Positions 1 to 4,554 of a DNA stretch of 4,554 bases are shown piece after piece (positions within the stretch are counted from its first letter, which is position 1; each line of letters opens with the position of its first letter). The notes beneath the pieces are model-generated. The model worked only from the letters and a program-made list of their open reading frames with translations. It ran no database searches and had not been told where the DNA came from. The position numbers and the translations under genes are program-made. The stretch spans positions 1 to 4,554 of the IMG/VR virus record IMGVR_UViG_2778261688_000001. The stretch is one strand, 5' to 3'. The DNA comes from a virus (lineage: Duplodnaviria; Heunggongvirae; Uroviricota; Caudoviricetes).

Positions 1-892
1 GCAGCGTTAACGGTGATGGTGTGTCCATGTGAACCAATCGCAACGGAGTGCGTATGAGCACCAATACCGACAGTATGTGCATGTGCGCCTGCGCTTGCAG
101 CAGTGCCGGACAGCGAGTGGGTATGAGCACCATCTGATGATGTCTTCCCTGCATTACGAGTCTGGCCACTACCGCTTGTTGTGCTCATAATCCCCGCGCT
201 TAGATTTGAAATCGCGGTATAACCATTAGGGAAAATGCTCGTGTTCGTGCCACCAAATGCACCGGAACTCTTGTGTTGGTGCGCACCGGCACTATTTGCG
301 GTCCCGCTAATACTATGGGTATGCGCCCCGGTGTTATTCGTGGATTTGGTTCCGTAATCAAACGACGATGTGGTTTTCGTCCCCAAATCCGTACTGGATG
401 CGCTGGCGCTGTGGGTGTGCGATTTAATGCCGTCCTGTTCCTGAGATAATACGGCCCGACCACTGGCGGGCTTGCCCTTAATCGTCCAGCCACGCATATC
501 AGGGATCACGCCTGACGGATAAGCAACTGCAAGTTTCGGGTATGCAGATTTGTCAAAAGTCTGCCCCTGCATCAGGGCATAACCAGACGGAACGGTATCT
601 GATGGCCACGGGATTGGTGCACCGACTGGATAAAACTCTGCAGGAGGATGAGCCGAGGTGTAAAGCTGCGCCCACGGCGACCAGTTTGCGTCGGTCGTAT
701 CCCGTCGTGAACGAATAAATGCCGGAGCATGAGCACCGCTTGTACCACTCCAGCCGATGAGTAACTCACCTTCGCCAACGGCTGTCATCCCTTTCAGGTG
801 AATGATATTTCCATACGCTGTTGGATATCCGTTGTTATACACCTCGTATAACTCAAGACCTGCTGCCCCCTGCGTATTGTCTGTCAGCGCGG

Positions 893-894
<2 letters not shown>
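1..894 (-). CDS. stf: Side tail fibre protein (Stf-like) C-terminal region; 5'-truncated gene remnant lacking its native N-terminus and start, 3' end beyond the window start
   Basis: Hand translation of the minus-strand frame with codons at 899-897, 896-894 ... 5-3 shows no stop from 905 to 1: ...[149 protein letters not shown]...GAHTHSISG...GAHQHK...GAHTHSLSG...[29 protein letters not shown]. The PWPSD...[29 protein letters not shown] block and GAHxH repeats are characteristic of lambda Stf / T4 gp37-type distal fibre domains. Not listed in the ORF track because it runs off the window edge. Confidence 0.75.
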
Positions 895-3287
<2,393 letters not shown>

Positions 3288-3353
3288 GCTGGAGGGGTCA
3301 TCCGGCGTCCATTTGAGGCCAAACGGCGTCTCTTTGTCGCCAAATTTAAGATA

Positions 3354-3356
3354 CTA
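3354..3356 (-). other. In-frame amber (TAG) codon within the terminase large subunit gene
   Basis: Forward cta at 3354-3356 is TAG on the minus strand in the gpA frame. By my recollection of lambda gpA (…CPHCGEE-Q-YLKFGDK…) the wild-type codon is Gln, probably CAG, so a single C-to-T transition would create it. Confidence 0.85.
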
Positions 3357-4094
3357 CTCCTCCCCGCAGTGCGGGCAGGCAACATGAAAACGCATAAAAT
3401 GCAGGGATTCACTGGCTGCACGCTCAATCTGGCAGGTGCCTCTCACTTTGGGCGTGGAGCCACGGATGGACTTTGGCCAGACCGAGCCTTCAATACGTTT
3501 GTCGCCAAGGAACGTCGGAGAGCCTTCCTGTTCAATATCCTCATCAAAGGCAGCAAGTTCATCATAACCCGCCACATCCACCGACTTTTCACGGTAGTTT
3601 TTTGCCGCTTTACCGCCCAGGCACCAGAAGCCACGACCATTGGAAAAACGCTTCATAGTGAGCGTGTTATCCCGGTGCTTTTTGCCATACCACGGAGCCA
3701 GCGCCAGCAGCGACGGAATATCGCGGATGGTCGGCTCAACGTGGGTTTTCATAAAGTTCTCGGCATCACCATCCGTCGGCAACCAGATAAGGGTGTTGCG
3801 CTGCTTATGCTCTATAAAGTAGGCATAAACACCCAGCAGCATTTTGGAATAACCGACACGGGCAGACTTCACCACATTCACCTCACGGATGTAGTCGCTG
3901 CCCATCGCATTCATGATGGCCCGCTGAAAGGGCAGTGTTTCCCAGCGCCCTTCCTGGTATGCGGATTCTTTCGGGAGATAGTAATTAGCATCCGCCCATT
4001 CAACGGCGGTCTGTGGCTCCGGCCTGAACAGTGAGCGAAGCCCGGCGCGGACAAAATGCCGCAGCCTGTTAACCTGACTGTTCGATATATTCAC
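3354..4094 (-). CDS. A: gpA N-terminal fragment (246 aa) ending at the amber codon; the only product expected without an amber suppressor
   Basis: ATG at 4094-4092 and TAG at 3356-3354 on the minus strand. The sequence covers the Nu1-interacting N-terminus and the ATPase Walker A region of terminase large subunit. Confidence 0.8.
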   Translation of the reverse strand: MNISNSQVNRLRHFVRAGLRSLFRPEPQTAVEWADANYYLPKESAYQEGRWETLPFQRAIMNAMGSDYIREVNVVKSARVGYSKMLLGVYAYFIEHKQRNTLIWLPTDGDAENFMKTHVEPTIRDIPSLLALAPWYGKKHRDNTLTMKRFSNGRGFWCLGGKAAKNYREKSVDVAGYDELAAFDEDIEQEGSPTFLGDKRIEGSVWPKSIRGSTPKVRGTCQIERAASESLHFMRFHVACPHCGEE

Positions 4095-4554
4095 TCAGCA
4101 ACCCCGGTATCAGTTCATCCAGCGCGGCTGCTTTGTTCATGGCTTTGATGATATCCCGTTTCAGGAAATCAACATGTCGGTTTTCCAGTTCCGGAAAACG
4201 CCGCTGCACCGACAGGGGGATCCCGTCGAGAATACTGGCAATTTCACCTGCGATCCGCGACAGCACGAAAGTACAGAATGCGGTTTCCACCACTTCAGCG
4301 GAGTCTCTGGCATTTTTCAGCTCCTGTGCGTCGGCCTGCGCACGCGTAAGTCGATGGCGTTCGTACTCAATAGTCCCTGGCTGGAGATCTGTCTCGCTGG
4401 CCTGCCGCAGTTCTTCAACTTCCCGGCGCAGCTTTTCGTTCTCAATTTCAGCATCCCTTTCGGCATACCATCTTATAACGGCGGCAGAGTCATAAAGCAC
4501 CTCATTACCCTTGCCACCGCCTCGCAGAACGGGCATTCCCTGTTCCTGCCAGTT
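4069..4554 (-). CDS. nu1: Terminase small subunit Nu1 (DNA-packaging protein), 5'-partial; about the first 20 codons lie beyond the window end
   Basis: Minus-strand frame open from the window edge to a stop at 4069-4071. Codons 4554-4537 read NWQEQG, then MPVLRGGGKGNEVLYDSAAVIRWYAERDAEIENEKLRREVEELRQ...SEYIEQSG, which I recognise as lambda gpNu1 (181 aa in lambda). The 3' end overlaps the gpA start by 26 nt (4069-4094), as in lambda. Confidence 0.9.
   Translation of the reverse strand, partial: NWQEQGMPVLRGGGKGNEVLYDSAAVIRWYAERDAEIENEKLRREVEELRQASETDLQPGTIEYERHRLTRAQADAQELKNARDSAEVVETAFCTFVLSRIAGEIASILDGIPLSVQRRFPELENRHVDFLKRDIIKAMNKAAALDELIPGLLSEYIEQSG

Follow-up and report, generated by a model that had tools for sequence, protein, structure and literature searches.

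The amber codon that interrupts the terminase large-subunit gene of this lambda-like prophage is real but ordinary: a nonsense mutation of recent date in a cryptic prophage that was already gutted. The stretch of DNA analysed (the window, 4,554 bp) is the whole of contig NLGU01000056.1 (GCA_002225785.1), reversed. The amber, a TAG, is codon 247 of the gene (3354..3356, minus strand), where the ancestral codon was CAG (Gln). Very probably, the gene was lost by neutral pseudogenisation, through a spontaneous C>T change in a prophage at the Qin site that was already defective; we infer the neutrality and the spontaneity from the context, with only two private substitutions in the lineage.

Every gene in the window lies on the minus strand, in lambda order. 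The terminase small-subunit gene Nu1/nohA (4069..4554, minus) has its 5′ end cut by the end of the contig, and is complete (181 aa) in L003, a 27-kb contig of GCA_002227175.1 which is identical to the window across all 4,554 bases. It is followed by the gpA-type terminase large-subunit gene A (2169..4094, minus; 641 codons, GTG start), now a pseudogene, and by the intact head-tail joining gene for gpW (1966..2172, minus; 68 aa). Next comes a truncated portal gene, B′ (893..1969, minus), which covers residues 1-358 of 533 and whose TAA stop is generated by a deletion junction. The remainder (1..896, minus) is a 3′ remnant of the side tail-fibre gene stf, which begins at codon 710 without a start of its own, includes the Collar domain and fibre repeats, and is cut by the contig end.

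The nearest intact relative is the lambda-like prophage of E. coli O22:H8 strain 154 (L008), which served as the coordinate reference. Of the 3,660 collinear bases in window 895-4554, all but two (3356 and 2745) agree with it; against lambda J02459, there are 64 differences over 3,659 bases. For window 1-896 the match is to the stf gene of the strain 154 prophage (100% identity), where this sequence is located 17.9 kb further on. The junction (895..896) corresponds to a deletion of 17,889 bp relative to the intact prophage, with L008 5046/5047 joined to 22935/22936 and a 2-nt GT overlap at window 895/896. The genes lost are the 3′ end of B, followed by C, D, E, FI, FII, Z, U, V, G, T, H, M, L, K, I, J, lom and stf codons 1-709. 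The B′/stf′ junction was not found in 5,426 complete E. coli genomes, nor in genome_contigs, and its carriers were recovered solely by exact-protein look-ups. Both ends of the window fall inside genes that are multi-copy in E. coli genomes, stf and Nu1/nohA (median 2 places per genome, up to 10), and the window probably ends where the assembly broke off at repeated prophage modules, rather than at biological boundaries.

On the plus strand, window 3354-3356 reads CTA, i.e. TAG on the minus strand. Translation of 4094..2169 (minus) gives 641 codons and a terminal stop, with codon 247 as the sole internal stop (ACPHCGEE*YLKFGDKETPFGLKW around the amber). This agrees with an earlier note on this DNA, according to which one TAG, at codon 247, is the only interruption of a lambda-like gpA frame. 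Base-by-base comparison places the mutated base at window 3356, which is A on the plus strand and G in both lambda J02459 and strain 154. The earlier note had also considered CAG as a possible original codon, and the alignment it suggested as a check bears this out, with CAG in lambda J02459 and in strain 154; by sequence matching, codon 247 likewise reads as CAG (Gln) in every one of approximately 3,000 E. coli records and 80 phage records. The amber arose by one C>T transition on the coding strand, from CAG (Gln) to TAG. Stop codons are created by 4.0% of all single substitutions in the gene, and by 4.6% of coding-strand C>T changes. As a chance event the amber is unremarkable: since approximately 4% of single substitutions in A create a stop, no selection need be invoked and drift suffices.

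The amber allele is one base away from every record searched (3,055 from E. coli and 80 from phages), as might be expected of a sequencing or assembly error in which the true base is C and A is intact. The 61-mer centred on the amber codon matches none of the 80 phage records exactly, nor any of the 3,055 E. coli complete-genome records (4,300 places), the closest matches in both being exactly one base off, and the 45-mer of the TAG allele was not found in genome_contigs or metagenome_contigs. However, searching for the exact 246-aa product recovered the TAG from separately assembled data, i.e. from L003 and L012 (GCA_002227175.1), L005 (Logan ERR2223751) and L006 (GCA_965257995.1), and several further samples share TAG-bearing contigs. 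In L005 the haplotype around the TAG also differs slightly, with ACC at codon 450, which is not expected from a recurrent artefact. An error at 3354-3356, against which the earlier note had cautioned, is therefore vanishingly unlikely. One other candidate from the 246-aa look-up, L007 (Logan ERR15562984), was rejected as a carrier, as its contig runs out on the C of an unmutated CAG. This example illustrates how the end of a contig can leave a partial product that passes for a truncated allele.

Apart from the stop, gene A is a close counterpart of lambda gpA (641 aa). The complete list of differences is T151S, D185E, P231L, Q247* and I459V, giving an amino-acid identity of 99.4% (four substitutions plus the stop). 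When glutamine is restored at position 247, Pfam identifies both domains of the lambda protein, GpA_ATPase (PF05876) at residues 47-285 (E 2e-50) and GpA_nuclease (PF20454) at residues 322-600 (E 2e-74), in the order typical of the gpA family, with the ATPase domain N-terminal to the nuclease domain. The gene order is also that of the family (Nu1-A-W-B), with Nu1, A, W and B′ collinear with lambda and strain 154. An uninterrupted full-length frame is missing, and the TAG at codon 247 makes the gene a pseudogene by the annotation standard applied to its relatives.

Without suppression, the predicted product is the open N-terminal fragment of 246 aa (3354..4094, minus). The earlier note had predicted that this fragment would contain the Walker A region and lack the nuclease, and this much stands: the fragment retains the Walker A region (KSARVGYS) and lacks the entire nuclease domain and the C-terminus. 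To this can be added that the stop falls within GpA_ATPase, which means that the ATPase domain is truncated as well, losing about its last 40 residues. Downstream there is a mechanical ORF of 372 aa (2169..3287, minus), which starts at a GTG at Val270 and spans the nuclease domain.

Both pieces are listed as ORFs by gene callers and match Pfam domains, as they would if A had become a domesticated, functional split gene with a 246-aa ATPase fragment and a 372-aa nuclease fragment; a domesticated gene might alternatively be read through at the TAG. We consider either version very improbable. The stop lies inside the ATPase domain (47-285) rather than between the domains, and the change is very recent, only one substitution away from the intact allele. 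On inspection, the bases just upstream of the Val270 GTG, GATGACCCCTCCAGC, contain no Shine-Dalgarno-like purine run; as its start is an internal GTG lacking such a run, the 372-aa ORF is probably not expressed independently. There is no tRNA gene within the available prophage segment, and hence no suppressor tRNA encoded there, and no Rfam family matches the window, leaving read-through unexplained by any element found. Under neutral pseudogenisation, by comparison, the amber-bearing A would be expected to give no functional protein.

Two substitutions, at window 2745 and 3356, are the only lineage-private ones in 3,660 bases. Each is a G>A on the plus strand, and so a C>T in the coding sense of A. 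The change at 2745 (minus), identified by alignment to strain 154, is synonymous (Thr450, ACC>ACT). With just two events, no mutational bias can be inferred. The relative timing of these changes can be read from the carriers. The window and L003 have all three changes, i.e. the junction, the TAG and ACT at codon 450. L005 has the junction and the TAG, yet still has ACC at codon 450. An exact look-up with the junction-specific 358-aa B′ protein recovered L013 (GCA_961210755.1) and L015 (SRR12645874, and further samples), in which the junction is identical, codon 247 is CAG, codon 450 is ACC and an intact A gene of 641 aa is called; they are otherwise identical to the window over 4,554 bases (L013) and 3,860 bases (L015). 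Read from these haplotypes, the order of events is the deletion, then the amber, then the synonymous change: the deletion came first, and the amber later in an already dead prophage, because L013 and L015 combine the shared junction with CAG and an intact A, and the Thr450 change followed the amber because L005 has the TAG but still ACC. The modest value of this locus is in such a cleanly ordered decay of a prophage (deletion, nonsense, silent change), with each stage extant in public data.

Four more-diverged Logan/ENA contigs (L014, L016, L017 and L018) all end at the junction-equivalent base, exactly at window 896. As they do not cover the junction they were excluded from the deletion carriers. 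Their ends suggest a branch in the assembly graph, produced either by the same deletion in other backgrounds or by a deleted copy beside an intact one.

The earlier note had described the lesion as a point mutation and not decay by frameshifts or deletions. That description holds for gene A itself and fails for its neighbourhood, where the 17.9-kb B/stf deletion lies 1.3 kb downstream. This deletion first joined the portal gene B to the final third of stf, with loss of all intervening head and tail genes. A C>T, very probably spontaneous, then turned the CAG of Gln247 into an amber in a prophage that was already cryptic. Translation would end at residue 246, inside the ATPase domain, which would remove any residual terminase activity, and the amber would have no effect on particle production, this being already impossible.

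The element is a defective lambda-like prophage at the Qin site of a natural Escherichia-type chromosome. In L003, the genes upstream are, in order, relB, hok, rem, a Q-type antiterminator, csp genes, a holin, a lysozyme, cspI, gnsB, ydfO, ynfO and nohA. This is the order found in Qin of K-12, and it is likewise annotated in strains 154 and 81. The genes tfaQ and pinQ lie past the contig ends in every carrier recovered, while the stf-ending deletion itself is seen.

Among natural elements, the closest counterpart is Qin, the cryptic prophage of K-12, in which a deletion of this kind, but larger, formed the nohA′-stfQ′ junction. The two prophages are alike in chromosomal neighbourhood, in the gene order upstream of nohA, and in having an internal deletion that ends at the identical stf nucleotide. 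In K-12, nohA is joined directly to the stfQ remnant, which is followed by tfaQ and pinQ. However, the K-12 deletion starts in nohA (L008 1832), so that A, W and B are wholly gone, whereas the prophage in the window has kept Nu1, A, W and two thirds of B, and its A gene has been hit separately by a nonsense mutation. Another terminase large-subunit remnant in a defective prophage is aaaE in e14, also a cryptic prophage of K-12 (NC_000913.3). In that case the remnant is a fragment within a chimeric CDS, ymfN (‘chimeric replication protein/phage terminase’), whereas A in the window is full length with one point nonsense, which represents an earlier stage of decay.

The natural setting bears directly on the suggestion, made in the earlier note, that the amber is an Aam-like, conditional-lethal allele, which would make it a suppressor-sensitive A-amber of a viable lambda or of a lambda-derived vector. 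The likeness to the classical lambda Aam alleles is genuine, in that the TAG is one substitution from a sense codon, as in a sus allele, and CAG>TAG is the type of change that gives supE-suppressible ambers. In principle, as the earlier note had it, a glutamine-inserting suppressor would reverse the change and restore the wild-type protein, the ancestral codon being CAG. Both private changes are also G:C>A:T transitions, which classical mutagens tend to produce, but two transitions are far too few to infer mutagenesis. Unlike the classical alleles, this amber lies on a non-lambda backbone, with its 64 differences from lambda over 3,659 bases and near identity to a natural Qin-site prophage rather than to a laboratory stock of lambda, and in a non-viable genome. 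A sus allele belongs to an otherwise complete genome, whereas here B is truncated and the 17,889-bp deletion extends from the 3′ end of B through stf codon 709, so that no suppressor could give plaques. With the B-to-stf morphogenetic genes deleted, the building of particles is impossible whatever codon 247 reads. The deletion is moreover older than the amber, which arose after the death of the prophage, and the carriers are whole-genome assemblies and sequencing runs with the Qin chromosomal context. The Aam-like reading is not supported and must be regarded as extremely improbable. A gene that is ‘intact except for one stop’ can, out of context, resemble a designed conditional mutant.

A further explanation is that the loss of A was selected, because a remnant consisting of cos, Nu1 and A could cut the chromosome during late-gene expression. 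The remnant does retain Nu1, A and W together with the Q-type antiterminator and the lysis genes, and the amber lineage has lasted long enough to gain a further substitution and is present in several samples. However, the amber is a single event with no second independent knockout seen, relatives that bear the deletion with an intact A occur in at least as many samples, and a stop results from approximately 4% of random substitutions in A. We therefore judge selection for the knockout to be improbable, and retain neutral pseudogenisation as the explanation. One consequence of the amber is that superinfecting lambdoid phages can no longer obtain gpA from the remnant in this lineage, either through complementation or through marker rescue at codon 247.

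The amber itself offers nothing novel. A separate observation concerns the stf side of the junction, where the breakpoint, GGG/TA/ACCGCG at stf codon 709/710 (window 895-896; L008 22935-22937), is common to at least 12 deletions and is exact to the nucleotide. In the intact gene the sequence at this point is AAAAGGTCGGG/TA/ACCGCGCTGACAG. The loci concerned are L009, L010, L025, L030, L036, L039, L045, L046, L058, L070, L112 and L123-L134, and the prophages with the shared endpoint come from genomes, viral contigs and metagenomes. At least 11 distinct upstream partners, and one downstream partner (into tfa), are joined to this endpoint. Upstream partners lie in nohA (L008 1832, the K-12 type, and 1854), in A (2090), in B (5046, the junction in the window), in E (7456 and 8123) and in Z (9199), and four others come from other phage backbones. 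All of the mappable events are collinear deletions. Of the seven partners that could be mapped, six have the dinucleotide TA at the crossover (P about 4e-9, given a TA frequency of 0.029). The site is intact in 56/65 and 90/91 viral contigs.

A gene for a PinQ/PinR-type serine recombinase lies about 1.6 kb from the breakpoint, and is also present there in functional phages. Exchanges in stf have been ascribed to stf-associated invertases (PMC3945230). According to a 2025 paper (PMC12529663), PinQ shares only 38% identity with PinE, and its target is e14 rather than the DNA adjoining itself. The pix repeats of e14 were recovered (TTCTCCCAAACC..GGTTTGGGAGAA), and a Pin/Gin-type invertase site at the stf breakpoint is not supported, as the best likeness to pix is 11/24 positions and there is no second copy nearby; in the intact prophage, no second site matching the breakpoint was found in either direct or inverted orientation. 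In two functional lambda-like phages, mEp460_ev081 (L121) and PhiR42_1 (L122), stf and tfa are accompanied by a convergent gene for a PinQ/PinR-type serine recombinase. Neither has a second tfa′/stf′ cassette able to form an invertible segment, and the role of the recombinase there is not evident.

We tentatively suggest, as a possibility that is still rather doubtful, that the stf breakpoint is an undescribed site-specific break or crossover site, a candidate being the native site of the PinQ/PinR-type serine recombinase. The breaks may result from a TA-centred recombinase crossover, or alternatively from template switching primed by microhomology after a site-specific nick or stall. If such a site exists, it would be a main driver of the gutting of lambda-like prophages at the Qin locus, and the recurrent breakpoint could matter more than the amber if it is specified by an enzyme.
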